Counted from the first letter of the stretch, positions 1 to 64,000 are shown. The stretch: DNA of 64,000 nucleotides from Ginglymostoma cirratum (GCA_024137785.1 JAHRHZ010000054.1:3718493-3782492), one strand, 5' to 3'. Made by a program: numbers and translations. Notes: generated by a model not told the origin, from the sequence alone.

Positions 1-134
1 CCCTTCCTCAGAACTGTTCTGAGGAAGGGTCACCGGACCCGAAACGTTAACTCTGTTTTCTCCTCCACAGATGCTGCCAGACCTGCTGAGCTTTTCAGCA
101 ACTTTGTTTTTGTTCCTAATTCCTTCTGCAGTTT
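1..134 (+). mobile_element. Short Penelope-like fold-back element with minimal hammerhead core (cut by the window edge)
   Basis: Palindromic centre cccttcctcagaac-t-gttctgaggaaggg; body shared with the copies at 670, 54563 and 63325. Confidence 0.75.
16..51 (+). ncRNA. Minimal type I hammerhead ribozyme motif (intact core)
   Basis: gtt-CTGAGGA-A-GGGTC(accg)GACCC-GAAAC-GTT-aac: both conserved core boxes, 5-bp stem II, palindromic ACGT stem III, 3-bp stem I. Activity not shown. Confidence 0.6.
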
Positions 135-669
135 GTCCTGTTCAGCTTTGTAGTTGTCCACCTTCAGTAATTTTGTAGCATCTCCAAATTCCATTCTGCT
201 TGTGACTACTAAACTTCACTGGTAACAATCTCCAAAGTTAGCAACAATTCCTGTCACTAGCTTTTGGATTAATTTGGAGTGCCAATTGCATGTCCAATAT
301 AAAATATTTTCACCAATGCCATTTTTTAAATAAAAAAATTTAGGTACAAGCCTTTCCAGTGGAAATGCATATCAAAGGTCTTCCTGGAAATGTAATATCA
401 CCATATCGACAGCCTTACTCCTATTAAACCCTTTCAGCAGTCAGTGCAGGTGAACTGGCTGCTTTTTAAAAAGTTCTACGTTTAGCTGCTTTGAAATGAG
501 CTTTAACATTAACATTCCACTTTTATGTGGTGTATTATAGCCTGCAGTCATTATTTTAAATTTTAATAATGTTGTTTCTTCTCAGTCACTTTGGTTTCTT
601 GTCATTTTATTCTACCCTTGTTTAAGAATCAGCTCTCCTAATATCTGAAGCAATAAATTTAACTGCAAC

Positions 670-820
670 AGAAACAAAGTTGCAGGAAAAGCTGAGGAAG
701 GGTTACCGGACCTGAAACATTAACTCTGTTCTTCCTTTCTCAGATGCTGCCAGATCTGCTGAGCTTTTCCAGCAACTTTGTTTTTGTTCCTGATTTACAG
801 CATCCGCAGTTCTTTTGGTT
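670..820 (+). mobile_element. Short Penelope-like fold-back element with 16-bp TSD
   Basis: TSD taaatttaactgcaac at 654-669 and 821-836; inverted arm 670-693 pairs with 762-785; degenerate hammerhead CTGAGGAAGGGTTACCGGACCTGAAACATT. Confidence 0.8.
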
Positions 821-1136
821 TAAATTTAACTGCAACCTGTACTCACATCTCCATTATTCAGCCTTGGCCTGCTGTCTTCCACAGACATTGTTAGTTATAG
901 CATGACTAAGATTACCTCAGTCTTACACAACAGCTGTTTTGTATGATGGTTGTGGCTATTATTGTTGACTAGGGTATAGGGGTAATAAAGTCGTATGTTT
1001 CATTGCACAATCAGATACGCCAGTATTCAAACATTTCCTTGATGTTACCAGTTCAGAACATGGTTAGTACTACATGTATTGACAGTTGTTAGATATTTAT
1101 TTGTGTTCAATAAAATAACAGAGCTTTATATTACAG

Positions 1137-1219
1137 AATTGTTGCTGCAAGATTGAATGGCTCATTGGATTTCTATTGTCTAGACACCAATAAAACCATC
1201 AACCAGCTGCAGTACCGAG
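1137..1219 (+). CDS. SCAP: SCAP coding exon (5th from last), (R)[27 protein letters not shown](G)
   Basis: ttacag|AATT...CGAG|gtaagt; 83 bp, phase 2 to 1; matches the [16 protein letters not shown] motif. Confidence 0.93.
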
Positions 1220-2010
1220 GTAAGTGAAAGATATTTATTTGAAATGGATAGTTCCCTTATGTTCCTGCCTCCCCCTCCAAAGTTAGTACAAATTTACATG
1301 TTTTCTAGTGTTAGCTGTTAACAGGATGCACAACTCAATAATGTTGCCATCAAATAAAGCATAAAACTAGGAGATTCGTGGCTGATGATGAGGAACAAGT
1401 TAATAAAATGGCGTAAATGCCACCAAAATCTCATTGACATTATAAGATGCTTCCAAAGTCACATTCCTTAATTTCTTAGCCTCTCAGTACTTTTAGGCCA
1501 GTGTTGTAAATGGCTGTCACACAGAAGCTGCATTTTTAAGCATTGAAGCTTGGTCAGCAATTCATTAACCCTTTTTTGAAAATTATGTGATTAAAATCGT
1601 AAATCAAAAACAGTGAATACCGATTATTCTGAAATCTCCAACTCAATCCTACTGGCGCACTGTGTTTATAATCATGTCTTCCTGTATGTCCTTACATCCT
1701 CCAGTTCTGTGACAGACAACAGAGACATCAGTTACTATTTTTGCTGTGCGTCAGAATTCCCTTTTATAACTTTTGTCCCTTGATATGTCACTTTATAGTT
1801 TTGATGAGGATTTTAAAAGTATCTTTTAAATGTGCGCTTCCTCCAAACTTACATCAAACTACTCTTTGATGCGTAAGTTCCCCGTTCAGCTGGTTATAAA
1901 GGGATGAGAGCTGTTTTGCTATGATATGGTTGTCCTGTGTGTGCAAGTTGTTAAATGACTTCTCATTCCATACTTGGAGCACTAATTCTGTAGTCTGACA
2001 TCTTGTTCAG

Positions 2011-2177
2011 GAACACCCAACAGATCCACAATCCCATCATCACCAGTCTTCAGCAGTGGCGATACCATAGTTTGTCAGTTAACGCACATGGTTCCTTGTG
2101 CACACCAAAAGCCCATCACGGTGCTGAAAGCAGCTGCTGGCAGAGTAGTCACAGGAAGTCAGGACCACACACTCAGA
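2011..2177 (+). CDS. SCAP: SCAP coding exon, (G)[55 protein letters not shown]
   Basis: gttcag|GAAC...CAGA|gtgagt; 167 bp, phase 1 to 0; WD40 repeat CAHQKPIT...GSQDHTLR. Confidence 0.95.
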
Positions 2178-2296
2178 GTGAGTACATTTCAGTTGCATTT
2201 AAAATAATGATTGTGTTAATTGGGTGATAATCTCACATTTGGGCTTCTGTTTACAGAACATGAGAACATAATTTGGGCTGATAACCCCTGGAGCAG

Positions 2297-2874: not shown

Positions 2875-2990
2875 AAAAGTGGAATGCTGCAGAAACTGGA
2901 AATCTGATATAAAAATAGCAAATGCTTGAAATATTCAACAAGTCTGGCAGCATCTGTTGAAAGAGAAACAAAGTTAATGTTTCATCAGAA
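2875..2990 (-). mobile_element. Degenerate copy of the Penelope-like short element
   Basis: Reverse-complement similarity (gtctggcagcatctgt...aaagttaatgtttc) to the 670-820 body. Confidence 0.55.
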
Positions 2991-10964: not shown

Positions 10965-11525
10965 TACAGTGTTGCTGAGACCACATACAAGAGTGTTTTG
11001 CACATACTCCTTAATTGAACACACATATAACTGCCTTAGAAGCCGTTCAGACAAGGTTCATATGACTTATTCCTGCTTATCTTATGAAGAAAGGTTGAAC
11101 AAATTAGACCTATGCCCATTGGAATTTAGAAGAATGAAAGGTGATCTGACTGAAATGTACAAGATCTTGACGGGACTGGATAGGGGGATATATGGAAGAT
11201 GTTTCCACTAGTGGTGGAGACGAAAACTAGGTGACATAATTTAAGAATATAAGGTCTCCATTTTAAGTCAGAGATGAGGAGAAACTTTTCTCTAAGGGTC
11301 ATCAGAGTGTGGAATTGTCTTCCCCCGCAGAAAGTGGAGGCTGGATTTTTAGATTGAATCAAGGCTGCGTTAGATAAGCCTTGTTAAACAAGGGAATCTA
11401 GAATTATATGCCTCAGACAGGAAAGCGGAGCTAAGACCACAATCAGCTCAGCCATGACCTTACTGAATGGTGGAGCAGGTTTGAAGGGCCAAATGGCATA
11501 CTCCTGCCCTGACGTCCCATGTACC
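10965..11525 (+). mobile_element. CR1-clade LINE 3' fragment
   Basis: ORF 10957..11211: LSYEERLNKLDLCPLEFRRMKGDLTEMYKIL; tail gaagggccaaatggcatactcctgc. Confidence 0.85.
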
Positions 11526-16172: not shown

Positions 16173-16239
16173 TGAAGCTTGTGCTTGAGAATCTTGGGAA
16201 CCTTTTGCAGTTCTTTGATTTCAAGTCATTAATTTTTCA

Positions 16240-16850: not shown

Positions 16851-19800
16851 ACTATCTTGTAGCTTGATGTGACCAACTGATTTACTAAGTCATTTCAAAG
16901 AGTAATCTGTATTGTTGTGTGTCTGAAGGGTAAAGTCTCAATTTCAGCTGATCACTACAATCAATACTGCACTAATTGAGACTGTAATAGGTAATGTGGT
17001 TCGGTAGCTCGATGTATGACACAAGCAATTTCTTCAACCATCTCAAGTTTCATCCATATTTGTCTTTGAGAGCAGCTAGACCATGAAAGAATGCAAAAAT
17101 ATAAATGTCAAAATGGAAGTTGGGCTGCAGTACACTTGCTTAGATTGCTGATATCTATATGTTATAAAAGGCCACCAAGTTGGACATTACCAGAATGCCC
17201 ATTCCACTTGCCTTACTCATGAAGATTTGCTTTATTTTGGGAAGTGCATGTGTGTGTTTGAAATAATCAAAGACAAGATAATCAAATAGTTATTTATAGC
17301 ACAATTATATTACAGTGGAATGTACAATTGAAATTTAGTGTTTGTTATTGGATAACGTACACATGCAAAAGATCAATCCATCTCAAAGCCCCACAACCCC
17401 ACCCCCCCCCCAATCACTATATGCTAAACTAAGATGCTGAATCGCAAAAATGTTACTCATTGCTGCACTGATAGCATAGAACTCCACGCTTCAGAAGGTA
17501 AGGAGTGGGATTAGTGTGTATAAAAGAACAAGGAATTAAGGGAGGATGGCTGAGAGCTGTAAACAAAGAAATATTTTCAAATATCTTTTACAAATTAAAA
17601 TTAAACCAGTTAATAAAGATTCCTCAGCCAACTTCTGTGTAATGTAGAATTTCCTTTGTGCAAAGCTGAAGTCCGTGGCTCATTATTTCTAAATTTTCAT
17701 TATGACAAAGTTGACAATGAGCTGATAGTTTGCAATACCGATGCCAGTTCAGATTCAATGTTAGGGTGCAAGCCTCCTCCTTCCAACAACACCCATCCCA
17801 ACTACACTATCTTTTCCTCGCTCTCCATTCTATTGCCCTCCCTACCTAAAACTGTTACTGTGCACTTCACATGACAAAAATTGAAGTGTTTATCTGGACT
17901 GGACTAGCCAAATTTTACTGAACTATGTTCTAAGCCACTGAAATAATGTCAGTAGGTACTTCAAATTGATCTTTCCCAATGTTGGTAACTTTACTCCAAC
18001 TTGTGGAATGAAATCAAATTCTAATTGCTTAACAGAATGATGGCACATTTCAATAAATGTAAACTTAAAACAAGTTCTACTGTTTCTGTAGGGAAAGTGA
18101 TGTGTCAGGTATGCCCCATGGTTGTGTTCTTTCAATTGTGCTTGACGTGCAGACGCTAATTGAGGATTAGCAAAGGAGAAGTGGGATCATTTTCTGTCTG
18201 TTGACAGTCTGGTAATCTCTCCACCACTATCAGATTTCATTGTCATCCAATTGTGCAATTGGATAGAACATGGAGCCTAAGCCTCAATAGAAACTTTAAT
18301 TTGGAATCAAACAGTTCTATTCACTGATGAGATGAGACAATGAAACCACACGAAAACAAAAATCAGTTCATCTAGATTTGAGTCTCAGTGGAGATCTAAA
18401 TATACACTATGGCATAAGGTAACTTCCAATACATACAGTTTTTCAGTCTGTCCTATAATGTATTCAGTGGCTCTGTACCATCCATAAGTGGTTTTAACTC
18501 GATTGTAAACTGGGAAAAAGACTAAAATAGCTTGACAATTAATAACATACTTTGTAAATAAAAGTGTTATTTTACAGGAAATCTGGGCAAACTTGATACC
18601 CAAAATCTTTAGCTTTTATTTCAATTACATAGGGAAAACTACTTTAGAGAAATTAGAATACAAAGCTGAGTGGGGAAAGGCAACAATGTTGTTAACTGAT
18701 ATATGTGGAGCTCTGGAAATCTGGTCCTTCAATTCTGGGTAATTGAATCTTGTTATTCTTGTTTAAACTTCACAGGCCAGGAGGTTTAGAATAGCTGTTC
18801 TTTGCACAGGTTAATGAGTGGAAAAAATTGTGAATCATAAAATCAACAAACATCATTACAAAAAAGGTCTGATAAATACTGGCACATTGGGGTGCATATA
18901 AATCACTAAATTTGGATCTAACCTTTCTGTAGCCATGAAGTTCACGGTCTGTACATACGAAGGACAGAATGCTCAATTAGTTAGTGAGGTATCACTTTAA
19001 ATCTTTCAACCGATATTTCCAGTACAACCAATTATAAGGGGAGACTGGCTGAAATTAACTGTTCTCGCCTCACACTCTAATCCTCTGTAGGTAGGATTTG
19101 TTAGTGAAATGATTAAATATAATTTACATCATGGTAGAATGAGACAATTTTGTCCACAGTAACTACAGAAACAAAAAACTTGCAGCTTCTTGAAATCTGA
19201 AGAATTTAAAAGACGACAGTGAATCAGATGGTGGCTGACCTGTAGAGTGTTTCCAGCATTTTGTATTTTATTTCTCCCTGTATGTTTTGCATGTGATTCA
19301 TTGGGTTAATTTTTTTTGAGAAATGGTAAAAATAAACTATTTATTATTTCAATTCTGCACAGATCTTGAGATATGCTTCCTTCATTTGACTATCAATATT
19401 TTATTTTACTGCAATCAAAGCATATGCTATCTACATTTAAACAGGACATTGGCCAAAGGTAAAGTACTCTGTTTACCAGTTATTCTTCCACTTTTCATTT
19501 TTTATGAAATTATTAACACACCTAGCTTGAGCTTCAGTATTTGCATTGTAATGTTAACACTGCTACGGACTGTGGGAAAACAGTGCTGCACACAATGTAT
19601 GAAAGGTAGCACAAGACCGAAAGGAGACTATCTATTGTATTAGGTTTGAGATCATACACAATGGCCCAAAGAGAAGGAAAGCCAAATCTTAAAATAATCA
19701 ATTTAAGTGTACTTTAGGAATTTTAATGTCCATCAAAAAAGGGTGAAAGTGCTAATCACAGACTACCATCTGCTGGACAGCTGAAGGAATAACAGGAGGG

Positions 19801-22367: not shown

Positions 22368-24119
22368 CTACAGAGCAAAAAATAAATGAGAATGAATGAG
22401 GAAAAAACCCTTTCTCTTTCTAACTGAAAGAATGTTCCCTTCACAGTTAAATAATTACAATATTACATTCTTTTCCCCACAGAAGCTCAATGATTTACAG
22501 TGCTAGGTGCTAAAAGATGAATAAAAGGTAAGCAAATTAGGAAGTAGTAATTCAGTAACACTAAAGTTACTTTTGAAAACACAGATTGTGGGAGGAAGAA
22601 ACACAACATGTGAAGATTCACAGTTTTGAGATTCAGGAAACATATGTAAGGGCAGGAGGTAATTTTAAGGAGCGAAAACAGAAAACATTTGAAACTTTTA
22701 CTCCTTTTTAAAGGGGAAAGCAAAAGTGACTAACTAATCTCCTCTGGTAGTATTGGTTCAGAGGAGATTATTAGCTGAAATACCTCTTGTTCAAGTTAAA
22801 ATAGAGGTTTCAGAACCTTTGATAGGAATTCAAAGTCTTGATTTACAATTGCATGCAAAGGTGGGACCTTATCGTGCAGCACTCCTTCAATACTACACTA
22901 AAATGGCAACCTAGCAGAAGAATTCAATGCCTCCAATTTTGGATCTAGGCACGAGAATGTTACTACTCAAGCCATCACCCCATGTAATTTGCTGATCTAC
23001 ACTGTCTCCCATTCTGTCAAATCTTAATTTTAAAATTCTTGTCTTGGTCTTCCGATCTCACCACGGCAGCACTGTACTATGGCATCAATGCTAATAGATC
23101 AGGGGAAAGATACAGATGGGAATCCTGGAAGTTTGGATTTCACCCCCCGTTCCAGGTAGAAGTGTGACAGCACTTTCTAAAAGCAATATATTGTTTCACA
23201 GGGTGAGATGATGAACTGATGTCATTCTCAAATGACAGCAAGCAGATGCCTGTGTAATGGTGCTGAAGGCTATAAAATGAAGTAGTCTGCCCAAGAGAAT
23301 ACAATGAGTTTGTTTTGTTTTCTCCCAGCTGCCTCCCTCACTTTCCAGCTTCCTCTGCAACACCGGAGTTTCTCTCGGCCTTCGTGTCTGCACTTGGTAA
23401 CCTTACTGTAATAATTATTCCAAATATATAAACTGCCTAATCAGTTACTGGAAGTAAGATGATTGCTGCCCTTGGACACTCCTTCATTAGCCACAAAGTG
23501 GGCAGTTTGGAAAAAAGCTGAGGTCAAGGTTCAAGATTCTAGCAGCAGACCCCACCCATGCCCATCCAATACTGAGTGTTAAAATTCATTCATCAGCCCT
23601 CAGAACTCTGAACCCTACCACTAGCCTCAAACATCTCAATTTTCATTTCTCAGTGTTACAAACTGTCCCTTCAATTGCCTGAGTCCTAGGTTCTGAAATT
23701 TCCTCTCCAAATTTCTCTGCGACCATGTCCTTCAAAGTCAGATGTGATCATTTTTTTTCTTATACCTGATGTGGTTCAGTGGCAAAATGTATTTGGTAAC
23801 ATTCCCTGGATGTACTTTGGGATATTCTACTGTTATGACTGGTGGCCAGTTTTTAAACTGTCCAAGGCCTGAACAGGGGAATTCCCTCCCTATATCTATC
23901 TACTTCTCCCTTTCCACACTTCAGATACTCTTTAAAACCTACTTCTTTCACCAAGCTTTTAGACATCTGATCAAACATATATGGATCAATAATATATTTT
24001 GTTTCATGTTCCTGCAATACAACTTGGGATTTAAATGCAATTTGGAATTGTGGTTCTAAATAAATGAGTTGTTAAAGGCAATAGTTTATAAACTAAGTTT
24101 CAAAAACATGAACAAGTAC

Positions 24120-24233: not shown

Positions 24234-26136
24234 CTAAAATGATAAACCGCAAAGCAGATCAGAAAAGCAGCAGCTGCCATGCATGTCTTTTATGTTTATA
24301 TGTTGACTTCCCTCCCACAAACCACAAAAACAATTGCTGGGAACTGAAAAGTATACTTTAGCAGACTGCATTGGTAAATTATTTAAGTACACAAGATTGC
24401 AATACAGCATAATATTTTTGGTGATGGCTCAATCAGTTTCAGAAGAAGGCTGAGCTAAATGTTGCACTCCAGTCAAGCGGACGTAGAAAGTTAATGTAAA
24501 CTGGTTTTAGTGGGTCATTCAAACCACTTGTGTGTCAACACACCAAATGGCTATAAACAATTTGACCAGTGTTGGGACTGTGGCCAAAGCCAATCCTGCC
24601 TTTGCCCATTGAGCACCCATGCAAGCATTCTAAAAGAAGGATGTACCAAGGGAGTAGAAGATTAGGAGGAAATAGAAAGGACACAAACACCCAGTCCACA
24701 ATGGAATCCTCTACTAGACAGTGACTTTAATAAATAGTGCAAAACACGAGAAATAAACTTAAATTTTAGATTTGTATCGCAGAACACAAAAGTAAAGTCT
24801 TCTAATCAGCTGACAATTTGGATTATTTTCAAAATGATTTTCTTGAATATAAGAAGTTAATGATATCACTTGCAGGATATGATGTGCATGTGGCACTATT
24901 TTAAGCAAATTAACTACACCTACACACTTTACTAATTATATAGAAGGCTGCTAAAGGACAATAAACAAAAGTGAAGCATTGTTTCAAGTTGGGGGTCACT
25001 TGCTCAAACATATGTCAGAGCGAAAAAAATTATTTAAGCCTTAAACTGATTTTTAGGAGATTGATTTTGTAGCAACATCAATGACAATGTTATTTAGATA
25101 TTGCAAGGCAGGTGGAAAGGTTATTAAATTAGAAAGGATCGTCACAATCAAAAGCTTTTGAAGCATCCAGAAATTTGTAGTTTGGGCTACACCCAATTGA
25201 AAAATTCTTAACATTGTCTTTAGCTGAATTGACCACATGCACGTGGTCTCGACCCTGGTAATTACACTTTGGGAATTCACTCAAAATCAAGGATGAACAA
25301 ACATCACTGAAATGACAGAAGTTGGAAAAAGCCAGAGCTCTGCCAAAGCTCACCATGTTTGCAGAATCTTCCTTTCTATATCATTTTCTCAAATGCAATT
25401 AGGAACGGGCAACAAATGCTGCCAGTCTTGCCTGCAATACCCATATCACTAAAATAAAAACATTCTACCTTGCCTGATGGCACAATACTGTCATGGACAG
25501 GCAAATATGTACCAATAGTTGGAGCATTCATGCCAAATATACAGTTCTTTTCTATAGACGAGGTAGAGATCAGCTAGTTTATATGGTGGGATCCAGAGTC
25601 TTGGATGCTGGTGATCACCAAATTTCACACCCAACAAATGACATCTCCAATACATGCAAGTTCTAAACAAGGATTACGGTTTTGTCTAGTTGATTGTAAA
25701 ATCAAAATATGCGGGTGTTTTCAACCAGATCATCAACCTCAATTCCTTGGAATGAAAGTTTCTGTTTTGATGAAGATGCTTTCTTTTGGCTTTAACAACA
25801 TCATTAGAATAGTCCATGATGAATTCATGTTTTTAAGTAAATCTTGTGCTATACAAGCCAGCAGTCTGAATTCTGTAACAATCACAGAAGAGTTCCACAA
25901 GGTTACATTTGGCTGTTCTAACATATCAGTTAAATTCAATTTCACTAAAGATCTTGTTGCAAGATTTTCAATAGGTCACATGAAAAGCAGTAATGCATTA
26001 CAGTTAAAACGTTGTGGAGCTGGATGAACACAGCAGGCCGAGCAGCATCAGAGGAGCAGGAAAGCTGATGTTTCGGGTCGAGACCCTTCTTCAGAACCTT
26101 TGATAGGAATTCAAAGTCTTGATTTACAATTGCATG

Positions 26137-26536
26137 NNNNNNNNNNNNNNNNNNNNNNNNNNNNNNNNNNNNNNNNNNNNNNNNNNNNNNNNNNNNNNNN
26201 NNNNNNNNNNNNNNNNNNNNNNNNNNNNNNNNNNNNNNNNNNNNNNNNNNNNNNNNNNNNNNNNNNNNNNNNNNNNNNNNNNNNNNNNNNNNNNNNNNNN
26301 NNNNNNNNNNNNNNNNNNNNNNNNNNNNNNNNNNNNNNNNNNNNNNNNNNNNNNNNNNNNNNNNNNNNNNNNNNNNNNNNNNNNNNNNNNNNNNNNNNNN
26401 NNNNNNNNNNNNNNNNNNNNNNNNNNNNNNNNNNNNNNNNNNNNNNNNNNNNNNNNNNNNNNNNNNNNNNNNNNNNNNNNNNNNNNNNNNNNNNNNNNNN
26501 NNNNNNNNNNNNNNNNNNNNNNNNNNNNNNNNNNNN
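26137..26536. other. Assembly gap (400 N)
   Basis: Run of N; flanks 26050-26136 and 26537-26623 are identical. Confidence 0.99.
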
Positions 26537-26649
26537 AGAGGAGCAGGAAAGCTGATGTTTCGGGTCGAGACCCTTCTTCAGAACCTTTGATAGGAATTCA
26601 AAGTCTTGATTTACAATTGCATGCAAAGGTGGGACCTTATCGTGCAGCA

Positions 26650-26680
26650 CTGAAGAAGGGTCTCGACCCGAAACGTCAGC
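26650..26680 (+). ncRNA. Minimal hammerhead ribozyme core
   Basis: CTGAAGA-A-GGGT(ctcg)ACCC-GAAAC-GTC with the canonical GUC cleavage triplet; the stem I 5' strand is replaced by captured sequence. Confidence 0.55.
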
Positions 26681-28220
26681 TTTCCTGCTCCTCTGATGCT
26701 GCTCGGCCTGCTGTGTTCATCCAGCTCCACAATGTTTTATCTCAGATTCTCCAGCATCAGCAGTTCCTATTATCTATGCATTACAGTTAGTTGGGGAAGA
26801 TGAAAGATTGAGAAAGAAACAAACTCCATGCAAGTAAAAAACTTTTTAGCTGGATTTCTGGAATGGAAACCAAATTACATGGGGGTTTTGCGTAATTGGG
26901 AACAGAATTAGAAGTCAGAAGCAGTTGGATGGCTCTGTGCAGTCAGAAAGAACTCTGGACAAAGTTCAGAGTTAGTAAACAGCTAATTGATAGAATTAAG
27001 CCTCAAAAAATGTCTTGGGAGCTGTGGTAGCTCATAGGAAGCTATGCGCAATTAATAGTTCAGGCGGCAGAATGAGGTGCGAAGGAAATCCACAAGCAAT
27101 ATTTGCTTTGTGCAACTGAGCAAGATCAGATCTCAGGAAAAAGCCAGTGGCATTATTAGATTGGCGAATCTAGCTGTCTATAAAAAAGAAACGCTCAAGA
27201 TGAGCCCGACAGTAAGTGTTGCAATTCAGTGTTCAGAATCCAGGGAGTACAGACTCAGAAAAAGATCAGTAATTGTGACAATCCATGACAGAGCTGGATC
27301 AAAAGTGAAAAATCGTAATCCCGTAAGAAATTTTAATTTATTGTAACTTCCTACAGAAGAGAAATGGAAAAAAGAAAAAGATGAGAAGAGAAGGTATGCA
27401 GATTTCACTAAAATCTGAAGGGAGTAGAGGGGCAGGTTACAGAGAAATTCACGGGAACAGGTTTGACCACATTTGCTGTTTGATGTGTTCTGTGAATGTT
27501 CAACGATTGTTTGTCTATTACCATTTACACATCATACTAAGATCAGACATTAGAATACAAATTATAATTAGCTTTGAACAGTCTACACTTCTTTGTAATT
27601 AATTTTTACGTTTGATTAAGTTTTACTTATAATAACTTGTTATTCTTTGCTGATTAAATAGGCCTGACTAACCTGTTTCATACTAAATACTTACCATCTG
27701 AAACCCTATAAATGGCCATATCATAGCTTGGTTAAATTAAAAGAACTGACAAGATCTGTGGAGCAGTGGGACTACAAAGGGATCAGTGCATCTCTCTAGA
27801 CTTGGTTATAACTGCCTATAGACAGATCAGAAGGTAGTTTTTCAATACATGCAATATTAATCTATATAACTCAGAAGATCCCAGATACAATTTCTGCTAT
27901 TTGCCAAGTTAACTTGATGATGATAATGGTAAAGATCACAAAAGAACTTCTGGGATCTGAATCAGAAAACTGCTGCAACTCAGCGAGCATCAAATCCTTC
28001 AGAAGAGGAATGGCAAAAAGGAAAGTTATGCAGGTGAAACTCAGAAATAAAGAAAAACTTAGACTTGGGTGTTTCACTCCGTCAATATGTAGCACCTTTT
28101 AAAAACACTGCATGTTCAACAGAATACTTTGATATTGTATTGTTTGAAGCAACAGGATGAAAGAACAACGATCAACTGAAGGAAACTCAAGTCAAAGGAA
28201 TATGTTGTTCACTTCCTCAC

Positions 28221-35259: not shown

Positions 35260-36480
35260 ATTTCTCCTCATTCCTTTCTTAAAAAGGAATCCTCATTTTT
35301 AATCTACATCCCCTACAAGGAGGAAGATGTCCTGGTACCCATTTTATCAAGTCCCTTCAGGATCTTAATGCATCAATAAAATCACTTTCACTCATCTAAC
35401 ATCTGTAAACCTTTTTCTCAGATAAAGCTAAATACATCGTACACAGTGCTCTAAGGACTCCAGATGCGGTCTTAAGATCCTGTAAAGCTTCAGTAAATTT
35501 TTTTTTCCCTCCCTGAAGAAGGGTCCCGACCTGAAACGTCAACTTTCCTGCTCCTCTGATGCTGCCTGGCCTGCTGTGCTCCTCCAGCTCCGCACTGTTA
35601 TCTCTGACTCCAGCATCTGCTGTTCTTACTATCTTCCAGTAAAACATTCCTACTTTCATAATCCATTCTTTTGCAATAAACACCAACATTCCATCTGCCT
35701 TCCTAATCACTTACTGTACCTACTTTTGCAATCATGCAACTGGACACTCAGATACCTCTGTACCACTGGCAATGCAATTTCTCTCCAATCAAACAGTATC
35801 CTGCTTTTCTATTCTTCTTCACAAGTGAATAACTTCAAATTTTTCCACATTATACTCATCTGCCAATATCTGCCCACTCCGTTACCCTAGCTATATTCCT
35901 TTGTGGACCCTTCATCTCTTTTTGGCAACTTATCTTCTTACATAAACTTCCTTACATATGGTTCCCTTATTTAAATCATTGATATTAACTGTAAATAGTC
36001 AAGGCCCCATCATTCTGACCGATATCCAACCGATATCGCTTGCCAACCTGAAAAAAACCAATGTATCTCTATCCTCTGCTTCCTGTAGGCTAACAATTCC
36101 CTTATCCATGCTAATATGTTAGCTCTTACACCAAGTGCTCTAATCTTTCACAGAGACTCCACCTTTGACACCTTATCAAATGCCTTGTTAAAATTAAAGT
36201 ACATCACATCCATTGGTTCCCATTTACCTACTTTGCTTGCTATTTATTTCAAATAACTCTAATAAGTTACTTAAACATGATTCTGCTTTCACAAAACCAT
36301 GTTGGACTCTGCCTGATAGAATGATTTTCTAAGCATCTTACTATAAAAATATAGAAAATAGAAGATGGCCATTCAGCCCTTCAAGCCAGTTCCAACATTC
36401 AGTATGACCATGGCTGATCACCCAACTCAGTACCATTTTCCACTTCACCTCATACCCTTTGATCCCTTTAGCCTGAAGAA
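35260..36480 (-). mobile_element. Degenerate CR1-like LINE fragments (interrupted at 35513)
   Basis: ORF 35396..35710 begins IRKADGMLVFIAK; RT remnants caccttatcaaatgcctt. Confidence 0.7.
35513..35633 (+). mobile_element. Penelope-like short element (same subfamily as 26650) nested in a CR1 fragment
   Basis: CTGAAGAAGGGTCCCGACCTGAAACGTCaactttcctgctcctctgatgctgcctggcc..., collinear with 26650-26775. Confidence 0.8.
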
Positions 36481-37039: not shown

Positions 37040-38750
37040 AAATTTTCCAAGACAGATATCAAGAGCTTATTAAAACCATAGTGAACAGAAGCTCCTTCGA
37101 GAATGAGGGTGCGCAATTAATAATGGGGAAACCAGGAAACAGCACAGGAATTGAATAAATGCTTTACATCAGTCTTCATAGCAGAAGGCACTATTAGCAT
37201 TCCAAAATTCCTAAATATTCAAGGGGCTAAAGGAGGAAAGGAAATAAATGCAATAACTAATCACCGGAAATAAAGCACTAGGGAAACTCATGGGACTAAA
37301 CACCAACAAAAATCCCAGATCCTGATGTGATGCATCCTAGGATATTAAAGGAAGTAGCTACACAGATAGTTGATGCACTGGTAGCAATTTCCCAGGAATC
37401 CTTAAGATTCTGAATAAGTCCCAGCGAATTGGAAAACTGCCACATACCACCTTTATGTAATAAGGGAAATAGACAAAAAAAAAGGTAACTATAGGTCAGG
37501 TGGTTTTGTCAGTGTTACTGGGGAAATGTTAGGGTCTATTACAAAGCATTTAGAAATATATAACATGATAAAGCAGAGTCAGCATGGCTTTATAAGAGGG
37601 AAAGCATGCCAGAGAAATTAACAAAGGAATTAACAAGCAGGATTGATGAAGGGAAGCGGTGGATGCAAGAGATTTGAACTTTCAGAAGACATTTGTAAGT
37701 CACCACATATTAGGCTACCGAATAAGATAAAAGCCCATGGTTTCGAAGGCAGTATATTAGCATGGATAAAGGATTGGGTAACCACAAGACGAAAGAGTGA
37801 GTGAGGGGGTCATTTTCAGGACGATAACCTGTAACTAGTAATGTGCCACAAGGATCAATGCTGAGGCCAAAATCATTGTATATATGAGAAAAATGAATGT
37901 AAACCTGAAAAGTGAATTTAGCCAGGTTTGCTGTTGACACAAAAATGTTTGCCTTTATTTCAAAGGGAATAGAATATAAAAGTAGGGAATATAGAAGTAA
38001 AAAACCCAAAGAACTACAGATCCTAGAAATCAGAAATGACAACAGAAATTGCTGGAAAAACCTCAACAGGTCTGGCAGCATCTTTGGAGAGAAAGCAGAG
38101 TTAATGTTTTGGATCTGATGACCCTTCTTCACATGGGTCACCAGACTCTAAACGTTAACTTTGATAAAAGTGGGGAAGATTTGCTAAAAAGAAAAATAAG
38201 AAACTTAGTCAGATTACAACTTGAATGCTGTGAACAGTTTTCTTATCTAAGGAAAGATATGCTGCAATGGAGATGAGCAGTTCCAAGAAGGTTCACTAGG
38301 CTGGTATCAGATATGGAATGACTGTCTTATGAGAAGACAGTGAGTAAATTGGGCCTGTACTTTATGGAATATAGCAGAATGACAGGCAACCTTACTGAAA
38401 CATACAAGATATTTAAAGGGCTTAACAGGGTAGAGTGGAATTGTTGCTGCCCCTTGTGGCAGAGTCTAGGATCAGTGGATGTCATCTCAGAATAAGGGGT
38501 TGTATATTTAAAACAGAGATGAGAAGAAATTTCTTCTCATCTAAGGGTTGTGAATTTGTGGAATTTTTCACTGCAGCGGGGGTTGAGGTTGGGTCAGTAA
38601 ATGGATTCAAGCTGAGATAGTAAGGGTATAGGGTTATATGGAAAAGTCAGGAAAATGGAGTTGAGGATTATCAGATCAGCCACGATCTTACTGAAGCAGA
38701 CTTGATGGGCTGAATGGCTTCCTTCTGTTCCTACATTTTATGGTCTTATG
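37040..38750 (+). mobile_element. CR1-clade LINE (RT region to 3' tail), degenerate
   Basis: RT remnants (gatgtgatgcatcctaggatattaaagg; cagcatggcttt; gtgccacaaggatcaatgctg); 3' tail gggctgaatggcttccttctgttcc. Confidence 0.85.
37995..38163 (-). mobile_element. Penelope-like short element with partial inverted arm, nested in a CR1 LINE
   Basis: Reverse-complement copy of the 670-type body; near-TSD ataaaagt(a/g)gggaa at 37976-37989 and 38164-38177. Confidence 0.7.
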
Positions 38751-43419: not shown

Positions 43420-43700
43420 AGGAAGAAGTCATTCACGTGAAATTTAACTGTTTCGCTCCACAGATGCTGCCTGACTTGCTGAATTTTTTCCAATATTTTT
43501 AATATTTCTAATATTCACAATGTATTGCTTTTGTGCTCAAGATGAATACAGAAAGAGCCTGGAAATTCTCAGCTGATCAGGCTTTATCCGTGAAGAAACA
43601 GAAATATTTCAGGTTGAGAACTTTAATCAGTTCTGCCTGACCTACTAAGTATTCCCAACATCTGTTTTCACTTCTGATTACTACAGTTCTTTTCCTTTGT
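43420..43700. mobile_element. Two old degenerate copies of the Penelope-like short element
   Basis: ctccacagatgctgcctgacttgctgaa and an inverted ctggaaattctcag...ctgacctactaag arrangement. Confidence 0.45.
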
Positions 43701-44890: not shown

Positions 44891-46027
44891 TCAATGGCCC
44901 TCAATTCAATCAATTACTCCACCTCTGCATCTTTTCTACAGTTCATTTGTGCCATAGTTCCATTCCTATTTTTCTCAGTGGAATGAGTACATTTCCTACA
45001 AAAGTTTGCCAATCTTCTCTACATGGTAATTATTATGTTGTCTCAAATTCAACAATTTTTGCTTTTCCCCATCTGAACACGATCATTACAAATCTGAGTC
45101 TGGTGCACAAATCTAATCTGAATCAGTGGAATCTCTCCATTAGAGGCCCAAAGAGTTCTGGTTTTCGATATGAGACTTAGGTTCTTGACAAATTTACAGA
45201 TATATTATTGCGCACTTACTAAGCTTTTTGTTACATTGCAAACGTAGTTGGCTGGCTGTCTAAATGACTAATTGTCTGCTTGCTAACTATATAGAGTAAG
45301 ATATATCACATGCATCACATGCCATGAGATCATCTAAATGTCTTAAAGATTCAGTGCCTAAAATCTATGCACTTATACCACATGGTTGGCCTGCCTACCT
45401 TATTCCAAAGTCAACTCCCTCTAATGGGCAGAAGTGCAACATCAAATATCCCTCGAGTTAAATCAGGATGTCAATTATTCTCACTGATAATGGAGTTCAT
45501 AAATTGTTTTAATTCAACAGTTGATGAAACACAAAAATCATAGAATATAATAAAGGCCATTTTGCCACTCAGTTCAATTCACATTCAAGTAAATTATAAA
45601 CATAAAAGACTGGTTGTTCCCTTCTTTATGTAAGCACAAGAACTTTCCCTGACAAAAGGTAGAAATTCAAAAATTGCAAATGGCTGTCAATTTATATGGG
45701 CAATGGAGACGCTCAGATTAAGATACAAGGATTTAAATGACACTGATTATATCAGGAAGCAGGCAAGTGAATTACAATATTCTTAATTAAGATTCTTGTC
45801 TTTCCACAGATACTTCTTGAATAGAGTTTCTCCAGCAATTCATAATTTCAGATTTCTTGTATGTTATATTTTGCAATAATAATTATGTTCTCTTAAGAAT
45901 AATGTCTGTCAGCAAATCACGCTTATTCTCACCTCCATTAGCTACATTCCTGTTATACACTGACAATGCAATAGGATTTTAAAGGCAATTTCTCTAATGA
46001 CAATTTGTACATTCCTACAACTCCATA

Positions 46028-54160: not shown

Positions 54161-54562
54161 ACTGACACAAAAGAAGATGGCAGCATCTTGTTGTATGTCA
54201 GTCATCCCAGCTCCAGGACATCATTGCAGGAATTCCTCATGAAGTATCCTAGCTGCTCCATCAATGACATTTCCTCTATCAGATTGAGGACTAGGGATGC
54301 TTGCTAATGACTGCAAAATATTCAGCACCATTCACAATTTCTCAGACACCGAAACAGTTCAGTCCAGATGCAGCAAGACGTCCAGGTTTGGGCTGATTAA
54401 TGGCAAGTATCATTTGCATTACACACGTGCCAGGTAATGACCATCTCCAACAAGAGACTCATCTTAATCATCCCCTAATACGCAATGGCATTGCTGAATC
54501 CCCCACTATCAAAATCGTAGGGGTCACCATTGATCAGAAATGGAAGTGAAGTAGCCATACAA

Positions 54563-54809
54563 ACAACAAAAACATAAATTGCTGGAAAAACTCAGCAGGT
54601 CGGGCAACATCTGTGGAGAGAAATCAGTGTTAACATTTCAAATTGAGTCACTCTTCATCAAAACAGAGATCTGTGTTCCGAGGAAGGGTGACTCGACCCG
54701 AAACGTTAACTGATTTCTCCCCACGGATGCTGCCAGACCTGCTGGGCTTTTCCAGCAATTTCTATTTTTGTTTCTGATTTGCAATATCCACAGTTCTTTT
54801 GGTTTTATT
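54563..54809 (+). mobile_element. Penelope-like fold-back element with long inverted arms and 11-bp TSD
   Basis: TSD tagccatacaa at 54552-54562 and 54810-54820; arm ~54565-54665 inverted to ~54675-54773; hammerhead-like CCGAGGAAGGGTGACTCGACCCGAAACGTTAAC. Confidence 0.85.
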
Positions 54810-55570
54810 TAGCCATACAAGCACTTTATCTAAAAGAGTATGACAGAAATAGCAAATAACTCACTTCCTTGAAAGATTGCCCACCATCTACAAAGTCCAA
54901 GTCAGGAATGTGATGGAGTGCTCTCCACATGCCTAGATAATTGCAGCTCCAACATCATTCAAAAAGCCTGACACCACCCAAGACAAATCAGGCCAGATGA
55001 CTGGCATCACATCCACATTCACTCCTTCCCCACCCGACTAACAACTCAGAGTGACAGTAGTCTGTACCATCTACAACATGCAGAGCAGAGATTCACCAAG
55101 AGTCTTTAGACAGCACCTTTCAAAGCCATAACATCTTTATCTGGATAGACATGGATAGCAGGTAACTGGAACATCATGACCTGCATATATCACCACTTAC
55201 TATCCTCATGTGAAAATATGCTGTTGTTCCTTTTCTATGGCTGGGTCAAAATCCTGGAATTCCTTTCCTAACAGCACAGTGGGTCTACCTACACCAAACT
55301 GCAGCAATTCAAGAAGGCAGTGCACCATCATCTTCTCAAGTGCAATTAAGGCAAGAAAATGCTAGCCTAGCCAGTGAAGTCTAGATTCCAGATTTTGTTT
55401 TTTTTAAAAATCACTTTGTAAAGAAGTTCCAGCTTTTTATAAGCTGATTAGCATTTAGATTCAAGAACATTTTTAATAACAAGTTGAGTGATATTACAAT
55501 TTCTGAAAACTCATTGCACAATGTAATTAGGTTCTGAACTATACCAGCTGTATGCGGGGCAAATACGTAC

Positions 55571-57889: not shown

Positions 57890-58500
57890 GTGACAAAGAT
57901 CATTGCCCATTCCAAATAAGACTTTAAATGCTAATTCTATTTGTTTGCACAGGTACTGCTAGATCTGGAGATTCTCTAGCATTATGTTTTGTTTCAAGCC
58001 TCCATAAGTATATGCAATATTTTGCTTTTAGATAGCTGTGGCTGCTCCAGATGGCCAGAGCAACACAAGATCTCTAGAAGAATATCCTTACTGACTAATA
58101 CAAGGCAGTTTAGGATAATTTGAGAAAATCTTCCCCAATAAGCAAGAAGCCTATAATTCCCACAAATTGATTTATAATGCTTCTTGAATAGTGAAACATT
58201 TGTGGCATTAATGAAATTAGGAGGTAGTTTTATTATTCCACAGATTTTGTGAAAAGGTTGAGAGTTCAAGTGAATGCTCATGACCACAAGCTTTATAGAT
58301 CTTTGTAGGAAATAATGACTAGATCACCTGCTTTGTTGTCCTACCTAAATTTGATCTCTCAAGTTGTTGAAGGAATGCTTTGATTATTTTGGCAATACAG
58401 TTGCCTCCCAAACAAAAACATTTCTGTAATACTTCTTCCAAAGATCTCAGATGGCTGCATTATCTGAGAACAGTATTACAAATTTCAGCTCAAAAAGGGA
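57890..58500 (-). mobile_element. Degenerate RTE-clade LINE fragment
   Basis: ORF 57994..58287: NATNVSLFKK...ICGNYRLL...IILNCL...KDILLE resembles the RTE motif DAxIVxxFKKGDxxxCGNYRGISLL. Confidence 0.6.
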
Positions 58501-61394: not shown

Positions 61395-61451
61395 CTTTGC
61401 ATATTTCACTGCTTCATTCAACTTGTCCAATGAGCTTTGGAAGTAAGCAAG
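61395..61451 (-). CDS. PTPN23: PTPN23 exon (~e10), LAYFQSSLDKLNEAVKYAK
   Basis: ctgtag|CTT...AAG|gtgagc; 57 bp. Confidence 0.92.
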
Positions 61452-61593
61452 CTACAGTGAGAAAACAAAATCCACAATTTTAAGATCACACGACATCTAA
61501 AGAGGTGGGCAAATACATGAATTTAAATTCAACTGCAGATTCAGTTTACACTCTCAAAGGTTATATCAACAGTGAAAAATATTTCCTACTCAC

Positions 61594-61641
61594 TCTTTCT
61601 CCATACTTCTGTTGTTCTTCTGATTGCTTACCCATATGAAG
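61594..61641 (-). CDS. PTPN23: PTPN23 exon (~e9), LHMGKQSEEQQKYGER
   Basis: ttccag|CTT...AGA|gtgagt; 48 bp; Bro1 domain. Confidence 0.92.
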
Positions 61642-62309
61642 CTGGAATAAAAGTACAAAAAAGTCTTAAGATTGGCAGGAGCTGGAAAACTCCAGCTACT
61701 ATAAAGATAGAATGATTGTCAGAACTGCTGTGACCGATAAAAATATCATACTAATCACTTAAACTGATGCCTCCTTCTTGCTTGGGTATTTTTTAAATCA
61801 GCTTCACAGCTGAAGTGCATAGTTTTTGTCAAAAGGAAACCTTAACTTGTCCAACATATAACTTACTGCAATGAGTCAGTCTTGTCTCTAGTTTCACTAT
61901 ATTAGGTACTTCACATGCAAGAGGTAAATTCCATGACTTTGGAAGTAAATAAAAACATACAGATTAACTAGGGCTACATTGGACAGGGAAATTTAGCAAG
62001 TAAGAGAAATGCACCTTCCCAATTTACAAATGTCCAACTTTCAAACGCTTGCACGTATGAATATAATCTCAGACTGGAGTGCAATTTTAATGATTCGATA
62101 TACAAAATTCTCCTGTACTAATGAACGGTTCCTTTACATTGTCTTGAATTGTGCTCTGACTTGATAAAAATCGATTAGCAAATGGACTCCAAAATGGGAC
62201 GCATTTGCAACCCAGGGTCTGCCTGTAACACCTTAGAACTGAACCTAAAAGACTGATTATATAAATCTGTGTATGTTTCACAATAAACTGCCCACATAGA
62301 TGACCCAAT

Positions 62310-62610
62310 AGGCATCACTCTTGTCTCAGAAACATTAGAGACGAGATGTCAAAATCCAGGCTGATACTTCAGTACGGTAATAAGTTAGTACTAATTAAGG
62401 GGAACTGCTGTCTTTTGGTTGCAATATAACACGGATACCTCAACTGCCCTCTCAGTTGGAAATAAAAGATACGGGGACATTTTAGAAGAGCAGAGGAGTC
62501 CTCCCCAGTGTCCTGCACAGTTTATGAACTCATTGTGTGTAAATGACTGCCATGTTTCTCACATCATAACAGTGGTAACACTTCAGTGGCCAAGAAAGCA
62601 CTGGAACGGT
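62310..62610 (+). mobile_element. Deu-domain SINE, degenerate
   Basis: ctgccctctcagttggaaataaaagat...gaagagcagaggagtcctccccagtgtcctg. Confidence 0.6.
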
Positions 62611-63324
62611 CAAATCAAAAGACAACAAAAGGCAACAAAAACAGATTTCAGCAGTAGACGAGCTGATAAAATAAACCAGAATGACAAATTAAAAATTAAT
62701 CTCAAGCTCACTATAAGTCTTCAAATAAAACATTGTTTTCAAAGCCATACATTTAAAACCAATTTGTATTGCATTTTTAATTAATATGTATATTTGATCT
62801 AGATGAAATGACCACTGAGTTGCTGATATAACACTGACGATTAAAGGACTGGTCAGTTTAGACAACAAATCTAATTAAAAAATACTCTATTGAACACAAA
62901 GAATTTAAATTAGTTGATAACTTCTGCAGAAAAGGATTGTTATGAAATGATCACAAACATCGAAATAGACACGAAAGAATGCTTTGTTCACTGATTAGAA
63001 ACAGTCTTGAAGAAGTAGCTGCCTGAGAAGTAACTGTAGCAATTACAGCAACCGATGGATAAAAACACTTGGTAAACTGAGGAAGATATTGATAAAGAAG
63101 CAGTTTATCAAGATTTATTTCATACAGAATTGCTTAAGGTTAGGCAAAATCATGTAATCTGTCACATAAAATTTGGAAAGCAGATATAAAAAAATGACTG
63201 TTGTTACACTTCGAAAATTAATGGAGGGTCTGAATAGCCAGGCACACAGAGTTCAGAACTATAATGTCTGGTTTTTCCAGTGAGAAGTTCACAAATTTTT
63301 GACCAACTGACACTGTTTAGAATA

Positions 63325-63467
63325 TCAAGTTCTGAAGGAGGGTCACTGGACCCAAAACATTAACTCTGATTTCTTGCCACAGATGCTGCCAGGCCTGCTG
63401 AGCTTTTCCAGAAACTTCTGTTTTTGTTTTGAATTTCCAGCATCTGCAGTTCTTTCCATTTTTGTTT
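63325..63467 (+). mobile_element. Penelope-like short element with 13-bp TSD (1 mismatch)
   Basis: actgtt(t/c)agaata at 63312-63324 and 63468-63480; agtt-CTGAAGG-A-GGGTC(actg)GACCC-AAAAC-ATT-aact (degenerate core). Confidence 0.8.
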
Positions 63468-64000
63468 ACTGTTCAGAATACTGTTCTGGTAATTATTATT
63501 GCACCTCAAGTCTTTACCATCTGACGGCCATGATGTAAACCCCACCACTTTCTGGGGTAAAATACAGAAAAACTGAAAATAGGAACATGTACTGACCTAT
63601 TGAGTCTACTCTGCCACTTAACAGGATAATAAATGATCACTTATGTCAATGATATACACCCGCTCTCGCTATTCTAAATAAGAACATGCCTGCTTGAGCA
63701 GTAAGCTTGTTTACATTAGAACTGTTAATAAGACATAATATTCTTCATTATTAGTTCTATCCGACAGACTTCATCTAAATGCAGATTGATCTTCATTCTG
63801 CATTCCCAAGCATAAAAATGATCTGTGCATTGACAAACAGCCAAGCAATATTAAATAGGGAAACCTCTTTTTCTTGAGGTAGGATGCTCATTTGAGCCCT
63901 TTAGGACGTGTAAGCCTCATTGAGAATTAAGCTCAGTACCCTTTAATCCAAAGTTGGGAACTTGACCAAATAAGCAGAAATGTGTCAGTTAGTTTTATGT

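Follow-up and report, generated by a model that had tools for sequence, protein, structure and literature searches.

Predicted hammerhead-bearing repeats in Ginglymostoma cirratum as probable 5'-short pseudo-LTR insertions of Penelope-like elements

The pseudo-LTRs of metazoan EN+ Penelope-like elements (PLEs) carry a minimal hammerhead ribozyme, found mostly as single dispersed motifs that are thought to be truncated PLEs and number thousands per vertebrate genome (Cervera and de la Pena 2014, PMC4209133). The repeats described here share with that motif the CUGANGA and GAAA boxes, the extra base before stem II, the G10.1-C11.1 pair and the palindromic 15.2-16.2 positions. They differ in stem I, which is 3 bp long in one subfamily (A) and absent in the other (B), while the part of that paper drawn on here reports a 2-bp stem I in D. 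virilis and does not name sharks among the hosts. Penelope elements of Adineta vaga have an inverted pseudo-LTR (pLTR) that is 37 bp shorter, a 31-bp tail, target-site duplications (TSDs) of 8-10 bp, palindromic junctions and host DNA captured between pLTRs, all features resembling ours (Arkhipova et al. 2013, PMC3846280). As described in the sections cited, those elements are rare and mostly ORF-bearing, with the inversion explained by self-priming; unlike that case, a captured 68-nt piece could be traced here to a donor 3.1 kb away.

The PAc (Poseidon) element of Anolis carolinensis is alike: its hammerhead precedes, by slightly more than 100 nt, two internal RT start sites that delimit the tail, both target strands are cut and extended, and a dimer is predicted; in vitro, ribozyme cleavage was unnecessary (Frangieh et al. 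2024, PMC11167929). Its ORF starts at stem II, whereas no ORF start of this kind was seen here. The main text of that study does not discuss inverted arms, and the inverted pseudo-LTR with its one-sided tail has been described as unexplained (PMC8557442). Animal non-LTR retrozymes are likewise short, hammerhead-bearing, pLTR-derived and dispersed as monomers, and occur in one chondrichthyan, but are defined as head-to-tail tandems of at least two intact units (Li et al., bioRxiv 10.64898/2026.07.22.740005). The window copies are solo or head-to-head, with no head-to-tail tandem of intact units in the window; one tandem-type joint was seen elsewhere in the genome (26775 to 26650, 35 letters between, one contig of run X1). 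Finally, L1 twin priming and templated insertion, in the portion of PMC11702581 considered, involve second target-end priming, an inverted arm, an intact TSD, microhomology joins and templated genomic pieces at junctions. L1 arms barely overlap and are primed at the poly(A) end and a variable internal site, whereas the arms here usually overlap and both ends lie at fixed internal sites.

Seven strong arms, each ~130 nt long, were found in the window, the whole 64-kb stretch of DNA analysed; they start at 19, 692, 26650, 35513, 38131 (minus strand), 54678 and 63332. Running a profile of the seven over the window recovered additional copies at 2887-2983, 43435-43693 (three pieces), 19224, 57920 and 45798 (Table 1), and the same search of the reversed window as a control gave nothing below E 1.5. 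Alignments separated the arms into subfamilies A and B. The first-pass annotation, which had listed at least seven clear copies plus decayed ones in two subfamilies, was borne out on both counts. It had also reported that the window lacks an element ORF, and tblastn with six ORFs from outside loci found no PLE ORF at E<=1. The SCAP exon at 2022-2180 places copies 1 and 670 (16-51 and ~692-724) in sense orientation within that gene, as had been proposed.

Table 1. Repeat copies, their parts and host features in the window
Feature	Position	Strand	Basis or remark
Copy 1, inverted-arm stub cut by window start	1..15	-	palindrome centre at 15; 1-29 self-inverted, 96.6%
Copy 1, sense arm, subfamily A	16..135	+	profile and hammerhead descriptor
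Copy 670, left TSD, 16 bp	654..669	+	
Copy 670, inverted tail-less arm	670..693	-	covers ~+71..+94 only; 2-nt microhomology to sense arm
Copy 670, sense arm, 35-nt tail	692..820	+	core mutated at C11.1 and G16.2
Copy 670, right TSD	821..836	+	
SCAP coding stretch	2022..2180	+	introns house copies 1, 670, 2875
Decayed subfamily A copy, stem II deleted	2887..2983	-	profile
Decayed fragment	19224..19274	+	profile, E 1e-4
PTPN23 intron sequence, donor of copy 26007 spacer	22809..22883	+	PTPN23 itself on minus strand
Copy 26007, left TSD, 14 bp	25993..26006	+	
Copy 26007, inverted tail-less arm, subfamily B	26007..26094	-	+1..+88
Assembly gap within copy 26007	26137..26536	.	400 N
Copy 26007, spacer	26582..26649	+	68 nt
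Copy 26007, sense arm, 36-38 nt tail	26650..26775	+	core boxes intact, no stem I
Copy 26007, right TSD	26776..26789	+	
Copy 35513, solo arm, subfamily B	35513..35634	+	G.U at 10.1-11.1; no stem I; TSD not significant
Copy 37995, left TSD, 14 bp	37976..37989	+	1 mismatch
Copy 37995, long arm with tail, subfamily A	37990..38132	-	core mutated
Copy 37995, short inverted arm	38134..38163	+	+9..+38; ~106 nt short
Copy 37995, right TSD	38164..38177	+	
Decayed arm	43435..43520	+	profile
Decayed head-to-head pair	43553..43693	.	profile
Decayed copy, new here	45798..45852		profile, E 6e-3
Copy 54563, left TSD, 11 bp	54552..54562	+	
Copy 54563, inverted tail-less arm	54563..54668	-	
Copy 54563, sense arm, ~36-nt tail	54669..54809	+	U4 mutated
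Copy 54563, right TSD	54810..54820	+	
Decayed copy, new here	57920..58003	+	profile, E 9e-4
Copy 63325, left TSD, 13 bp	63312..63324	+	1 mismatch
Copy 63325, solo arm with tail, no inverted arm	63325..63467	+	core mutated (A9, G12)
Copy 63325, right TSD	63468..63480	+	

TSDs of 11-16 bp flank five of the ten copies examined, as first claimed; they are exact in copies 670, 26007 and 54563 and carry one mismatch in copies 37995 and 63325, and such scores arose by chance in 0-0.4% of cases (1963 random zone pairs). The only candidate at copy 35513 is 7-9 bp long (chance ~26%). An inverted, 5'-truncated arm was found in copies 1, 670, 26007, 37995, 54563 and 43553, while copy 63325, once counted among the fold-back copies, has a TSD but no real inverted arm. 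The inverted arm had been said to stop 35, 37 and ~36 nt short of the 3' end in three copies; we measured 35 nt in copy 670, 38 or 36 nt in copy 26007, where two ambiguous TSD bases decide, and ~36 nt in copy 54563. Both ends and an inverted arm are likewise present in copy 37995, yet that arm stops ~106 nt short (Table 1), so the supposedly fixed one-sided tail of 30-40 bp holds in three of the four inverted copies with both ends. The two arms of copy 26007 differ at two sites, both CpG. Six well-preserved subfamily A arms (copies 1, 670, 37995, both arms of 54563, and 63325) start at about -8 to +2 of the core. All four well-preserved inverted copies have a tailed arm that extends equally far 5' or further; the decayed pair at 43553 is the opposite, its tail-less arm (profile 15-88) reaching further 5' than the tailed one (profile 55-125), and a TSD search around this pair found none.

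A minimal-hammerhead descriptor (CUGANGA, GAAA, UH and palindromic 15.2-16.2) matched exactly at 19, 26650 and 35513 and had 0 matches in 100 simulated windows. In copy 1 the predicted ribozyme occupies 16-51, with stem I at 16-18/49-51, CUGANGA at 19-25, stem II at 27-40, GAAA at 41-44 and a predicted cut after 48; the cut predicted for copy 26007 falls between 26677 and 26678. The core had been called intact at all three positions, which is true of the boxes but not of the helices. Where 4-5 bp of stem I are expected for a minimal type I hammerhead, the arm at 19 is the only one in the window with any (3 bp), those at 26650 and 35513 have none, and the latter has a G.U at the conserved 10.1-11.1 pair. 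A15.1-U16.1 is retained in all nine aligned arms, and the palindromic ACGU stem III in the intact cores. Stem II is paired in 36 of 36 cells, with 10.1-11.1 being G-C in six of nine arms and G.U in three, and with one double change; shuffles equalled the whole-structure values 14-137 times in 500, and the full fold is lost in eight of the nine arms. The covariance-model check that had been suggested gave no support, as an Rfam search returned no hammerhead family at E<=5. A minimal type I hammerhead is nevertheless supported by the sequence, with self-cleavage predicted. The ribozyme would have been inherited from the parent element, and its cleavage would not be needed for these copies.

Ribozyme, inverted arm, TSD and tail are published hallmarks of PLEs, and the repeats are very probably the pseudo-LTR ends, from ribozyme to tail, of EN+ PLEs. 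Of 104 hits to the core motif in metagenome contigs, 29 follow a PLE protein match on the same strand at a distance of 54-164 nt; the hits were not de-duplicated and include the four query loci. ORFs at the outside loci carry GIY-YIG or RVT_1 (four of nine proteins), and 11 distinct insertions there have head-to-head arms, a tail and TSDs of 10-15 bp. Outside families that bear ORFs yield short copies of the same kind, whose 5' ends cluster a little upstream of the ribozyme (28 of 55 distinct hits lie within 31 nt), in a sample biased to short copies because loci were selected by a whole-core pattern and contigs break at long repeats. The whale-shark gene model P0121 crosses the catalytic region of a PLE RT in antisense (65.1 bits; maximum of 12 shuffles 18.1) and then a subfamily B arm in sense, although it comes from another species and may have an intron between the two parts. 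No PLE protein link was present in three of the four subfamily B gene models or in either subfamily A model. The first-pass link to PLEs is supported by the cores beside GIY-YIG/RT ORFs and by P0121.

Taken as a whole, the repeats are probably extreme 5'-short pseudo-LTR insertions made by the PLE RT/GIY-YIG protein. In seven of the 11 outside pairs the tail-less arm extends further 5' than the tailed arm, by at least 23 nt at L040, L071, L076 and L081 (the last with a tail-only arm) and by ~8-13 nt at L012, L036 and L100. Fold-back copying could not produce this geometry, which therefore favours twin priming at two internal RT start sites. The protein would bind the tail region of the element RNA and cut both target strands 11-16 nt apart, as the TSDs and PMC11167929 suggest. 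It is reasonably likely that each target 3' end then primes reverse transcription inside the RNA, a distal start site yielding the tailed arm and a start ~35-45 nt further 5' the tail-less arm. The result would be two outward-facing cDNAs, probably on one RNA, the second displacing the first. The cDNA ends would join head to head through 2-6 nt matches, a microhomology that is observed at the junctions, sometimes after nearby host sequence such as 26582-26649 had been copied.

Copies would stop 0-30 nt upstream of the core since the RNA begins there, at the 5' pseudo-LTR of a full-length mRNA or in a solo pseudo-LTR transcript. That a start site sets this boundary is close to an even call, and a fall-off or joining hotspot is nearly as likely a cause. 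No start-site difference between the two strands was found for PAc (PMC11167929), so strict pairing of a long and a short arm would need coordination. We tentatively suggest twin priming at fixed sites on one RNA, in which the tailed cDNA would displace, or stop at, the other, microhomology would join the ends and the RT could jump to nascent host pre-mRNA; the 5' pseudo-LTR of the mRNA would then give rise to SINE-like minis without a separate family. The papers searched gave no account of fixed-site twin priming for PLE inverted ends.

Copy 26007 straddles an assembly gap whose flanks repeat 87 bp exactly (26050-26136 = 26537-26623), and is thus one insertion with an unmerged contig overlap. 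Its spacer, together with 5-nt and 2-nt microhomologies (26577-26651), is identical at 75 of 75 positions to host intron DNA 3.1 kb away inside PTPN23, with no element around the donor, and has the polarity expected from PTPN23 pre-mRNA. The spacer-to-arm junctions were seen in the assembly alone, reads having given no spanning contig, while contig 8 of run X1 matched 26746-26900 without difference. The first-pass annotation had missed the host-intron origin of the spacer.

Among 12.9 million polyA reads of one run, 54,327 aligned to the 126-nt subfamily B arm used as bait, and 98% of these continue into unlike sequence; the mapping covers subfamily B. Upstream of 26650, the loose read ends agree on a pyrimidine-rich consensus (4425 reads, agreement 0.43), which indicates that longer subfamily B copies exist. 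Depth per mate class drops from ~20,000 to ~11,000 between 26725 and 26745 and almost vanishes beyond 26780, a step that fits two 3' ends but is confounded by the bait's own divergence at 26730-26736, which partly creates the edge at 26737. Five of the 15 listed inversion joints connect an arm from 26736-26737 (39-47 letters, tail) to an arm from 26649-26678, the far end of the other arm being out of view.

A self-propagating non-autonomous family, SINE-like or a monomeric retrozyme, whose solo pseudo-LTRs are transcribed from a start close upstream of the core and moved in trans by a PLE protein, is an unlikely but serious alternative. The tight start of the six subfamily A arms argues for it, as does the shark-type gene model P0125, in which a subfamily A pair is joined equally closely and an RT link is absent; PAc insertion needs only a short RNA (PMC11167929), one tandem joint exists in run X1, and PLE derivatives of this sort have been published (PMC8557442; bioRxiv 10.64898/2026.07.22.740005). 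Against it, reads carry subfamily B beyond the core on the 5' side and a gene model ties this subfamily to an RT; moreover, since families with ORFs have the same 5' pile-up in the outside contigs, copies that begin sharply need not form a family of their own. No pile-up of RNA molecule starts or ends appeared among the places listed, which weighs little in a fragmented, unstranded library. Of the first-pass proposal of a non-autonomous, Penelope-dependent family, the link to PLEs is supported and a separate family is doubtful for subfamily B; subfamily A is the likeliest case and may be non-autonomous, and such a family could exist alongside the 5'-short insertions.

Fold-back or self-priming, in which cDNA or antisense RNA folds back and is copied into the inverted arm while the tail arises at resolution, was proposed in the cited part of PMC3846280 and offered as a possibility in the first pass. 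It agrees with the near-perfect palindromic junctions at copy 1, copy 54563, L007 and P0123 and with all four well-preserved window pairs. We consider it improbable, since a copied arm cannot out-reach its template 5' and the tailed arm cannot derive from the tail-less one, yet seven of the 11 outside pairs have this geometry, four by 23-109 nt; inverted arms in host reads also begin at many different positions.

A retrozyme cycle, with a dimeric hammerhead cutting multimeric RNA and monomers circularising before reverse transcription, is very improbable. The palindromic stem III and the single tandem joint would suit it, and the two commonest inversion joints in polyA RNA (26651 to 26678/26679; 343 and 125 reads) lie at the predicted cut site. 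These joints had 0 contigs in either contig run, so they may stem from one or a few expressed loci, and 2-nt microhomology explains them too. No window copy starts at the predicted cut site, in agreement with the earlier view that cleavage does not explain the 5' boundary; eight of nine Xenopus dimers were uncleaved (bioRxiv 10.64898/2026.07.22.740005), and PAc cleavage is dispensable and protein-assisted (PMC11167929). Although some copies resemble long inverted repeats with TSDs, an origin as chance hairpins or as a MITE-like DNA transposon with terminal inverted repeats is extremely unlikely given the unequal arms, the TSD length varying over 11-16 bp, the solo arm with a TSD (63325), the tie of the core to RT+GIY-YIG ORFs and the empty simulated windows.

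The family itself is an ordinary, very abundant PLE product, and it matters for repeat annotation, false gene models and assembly gaps. What is added to the known picture is the arm geometry of seven in 11 pairs and one spacer copied from a host intron. The value of the repeats lies in the many natural insertions they offer for studying the origin of inverted ends and tails in PLEs: simply counting arm geometries can tell twin priming from self-priming, and templated spacers preserve traces of events at the integration site. If the proposed route is true, ordinary mRNA, primed at its 5' pseudo-LTR, would yield SINE-like ribozyme minis in large numbers.

Repeat arms of ~126-135 nt, counted from the CTGA of a minimal hammerhead core, are dispersed through the window in two subfamilies (A and B), commonly as a tailed arm paired with a tail-less inverted one; copies are named here by their starts. 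A profile built from seven arms recovers its own members at E <=1e-28, as it must by construction, together with inverted and decayed copies, and reversing the window leaves no match better than E 1.5, which upholds the first-pass annotation of these repeats as a real dispersed family. The target-site duplications (TSDs) that it assigned to five copies are likewise found, at 11-16 bp, in five of the ten copies examined, and such scores occur in 0-0.4% of 1963 random zone pairs; the TSD candidates of 2875, 19160, 35513, 43420 and 57920 lie within the range of chance. A fixed tail of 35-37 nt holds for three copies (35, 36-38 and ~36 nt), but in copy 37995, the fourth inverted copy with two ends, the inverted arm stops ~106 nt short; copy 63325 is without an inverted arm. 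Host genes and other repeats in the window are listed in the table, with the landmarks of copy 26007.

Positions of host-gene segments, other repeats and landmarks of copy 26007
Feature	Position	Strand	Remark
SCAP, 3' part	2022-2180	+	matches solved SCAP chains, E 6e-24
PTPN23	49416-49730	-	faces SCAP; E 8e-39
PTPN23 phosphatase-domain pieces	28212-32900		spread over this range
206-codon frame	21747-22367		presumably the last exon of PTPN23
LINE-like dispersed fragments	2220-2700, 11080-11506, 41931-42555, 50702-51336, 52065-52539		decayed RT-like frames; taken by us to be CR1-type
SINE-like pair	15877-16180 / 53396-53704	opposite	300 bp, 82% identical
Spacer donor	22809-22883		
Gap in copy 26007 with its flanking repeats	26050-26623		gap of 400 N between two identical 87-bp stretches
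Bait for reads	26582-26900		spacer, sense arm and right flank of copy 26007
Predicted cut site	26678/26679		

A scan of metagenome contigs for the same core gave 101 loci outside the shark. Of 104 motif hits, redundant and query loci counted, 29 have a same-strand match to a Penelope-like element (PLE) protein that ends 54-164 nt before the core, and ORFs beside the outside cores carry GIY-YIG or RT domains. At one locus a 961-codon frame begins with the core; its 630 homologues bear RT and GIY-YIG-type domains and represent a family found in invertebrates, with no shark protein among the best 120 of the 630. Since the outside arms can be aligned to shark arms for only ~40 nt downstream of the core, these loci are analogous PLE families and not the family of the shark repeats. 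By eye, both shark subfamilies and one outside family share a motif, GCATC(A/T)GCA, 20-25 nt away from the long end; it is a possible recognition site. Six public gene models (P0121-P0126) read through arms. The subfamily B arm, translated, matches four whale-shark gene models. In the whale-shark model P0121, residues 33-88 read the PLE RT catalytic region in antisense (65.1 bits; at most 18.1 in 12 shuffles) and the final 40 come from the sense strand of the subfamily B arm, which would link subfamily B directly to a PLE RT, in another species and with parts that may be split by an intron. No PLE link was found in the other five models, among them the two that subfamily A matches in translation, so the gene models give no PLE partner for subfamily A. 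A literature search for hammerheads in shark PLEs returned nothing specific.

Four sequencing runs were aligned to the bait at 82% likeness. In polyA RNA 54,327 of 12.9 million reads match it, 98% of them running into unlike sequence, and a related species has tens of thousands of matching contigs. The loose ends upstream of the core start at 26650 converge on a pyrimidine-rich sequence that ends in CCCATTT (consensus agreement 0.38-0.43 across three runs); some copies therefore extend further upstream, while most end within a few bases. Read depth is nearly halved over 26725-26745 and gone by ~26780, which fits two 3' ends, the step being confounded by divergence of the bait at 26730-26736. 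In run X1 a head-to-tail joint from the long 3' end (26775) to 26650, with 35 letters between and a depth of ~110, suggests a retrozyme-like tandem of ~160-nt units somewhere in the genome. Beyond 26775, polyA RNA gives a readable consensus with an ATG (15,461 reads, agreement 0.49) that may be the parent element's continuation or one highly expressed locus.

Among the outside ORF-linked families, 29 of 63 hits end <=30 nt upstream of the core. After shared flanks are merged, 28 of 55 5' ends lie within 31 nt, 2 at 32-94, 9 at 95-200 and 16 beyond, a count in which four loci with one common junction are unmerged and in which the pattern and short contigs favour short copies. Since ORF-linked families pile up there too, having many 5' ends shortly before the ribozyme is common to PLEs in general and does not prove that a family is separate. 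At outside loci a further group of 5' ends (~9 hits) falls ~95-131 nt upstream of the core, near the ORF stop. The simplest reading of the 5' boundary is that the RNA begins there, at a putative start; a passage of PMC8557442 places a start site within the pseudo-LTR for Penelope and one Chlamys element. The rival reading is that the RT falls off at the pyrimidine tract.

The cores at 19 (the arm of copy 1), 26650 and 35513, previously called intact, all match a minimal-hammerhead descriptor that gives 0 matches in 100 simulated windows, but stem I is present at copy 19 alone. Stem II is paired in 36 of 36 cells across nine arms, with weak covariation. An Rfam scan of the window gave no hammerhead, its sole matches being two weak miRNA-like hairpins; six stretches folded as single strands were not clearly more stable than expected (z +0.5 to -2.0) and failed to form the hammerhead, and viral contigs scanned for the core gave 0 matches. 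CpG sites account for many core changes, as would be expected under neutral decay after insertion. Passages of PMC4209133 describe minimal hammerheads of this type as inactive in monomers and weak in dimers, and a portion of a retrozyme preprint (bioRxiv 10.64898/2026.07.22.740005) reports that one of nine dimers cleaved. In the most frequent inversion joints in RNA (343 and 125 reads) the inverted arm starts at the predicted cut site; these joints occur in 0 contigs of either contig run, and may stem from few expressed loci. No pile-up of RNA ends is listed among reads on the bait, run X22 being excluded for its few read starts, fixed flanks and amplicon-like library. A third core variant, distinguished by its stem II loop and by a G.U pair, is seen in 5744 loose ends at 26681 (agreement 0.82) and would be a further subfamily absent from the window.

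Because 87 bp are repeated exactly on either side of its gap, copy 26007 is best read as one insertion, composed of TSD, inverted arm, 68-nt spacer, tailed sense arm and TSD, and the true locus is probably ~490 bp shorter than assembled. Together with flanking bases that also belong to the arms (5 nt to the left, 2 nt to the right), the spacer forms a 75-nt identity to a donor ~3.1 kb off; the gap overlap aside, no exact repeat in the window is longer. There is no element around the donor, so, on the sequence, host material would have been copied into the junction at integration, and the junction would have formed on site instead of being inherited. Misassembly of the spacer is unlikely, as the joins share just 5 + 2 nt with the donor and the left join is present at both contig ends of the gap; one contig supports the right end of the copy, and no read or contig spans the spacer joins, which rest on the assembly. 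In polarity the spacer agrees with copying of PTPN23 pre-mRNA into the left-arm cDNA; a DNA template fits equally, and the chance of such agreement in polarity is half.

The inverted arm could arise by self-priming, for which a passage of PMC3846280 implies that the arm reaching furthest 5' should also have the longer 3' end. All four well-preserved pairs in the window are compatible with such a fold-back, and the decayed 43553 pair alone is incompatible there. The outside loci speak against self-priming: in 11 distinct pairs there, each with an exact TSD of at least 10 bp and none sharing flanks, the tail-less arm lies further 5' seven times and the tailed arm twice, with one pair level and one complex. 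The excess is 109 nt in L040, 103 in L081, 68 in L076, 23 in L071 and ~8-13 in L012, L036 and L100; L081 joins a tail-only arm to a tail-less one. A reading of L012 as a non-overlapping pair was dropped, since at base level it shows a longer decayed arm. Four outside loci (L010, L042, L080, L084) have a common inverted junction (arm +51 to -17) with differing downstream sequence, and may be alleles, orthologues or re-transposed fold-back units. Of the 15 inversion joints listed from host reads, with 142 more beyond the list, five have an arm that begins at 26736-26737 and spans 39-47 letters, as long as the tail; the short reads do not reach the distal end of the second arm.

Geometry and joints together fit fixed-site twin priming, with two primings from the two target ends, one at each internal site. 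Parts of PMC11167929 state that the anole protein initiates internally on the RNA, at two sites that delimit the tail, that short RNAs suffice and that cleavage is dispensable. If one RNA were shared, the tailed cDNA would have to halt at or displace the other cDNA. No RNase H family is among the Pfam domains listed for homologues of the 961-codon ORF, and absence of that domain would permit displacement or halting on one RNA. In the literature searched, mainly main texts of open-access papers, we found neither the argument from arm geometry nor the locally templated spacer. The family consists of PLE pseudo-LTR ends: it is real, abundant and belongs to a known kind of element, and it contaminates shark protein sets.
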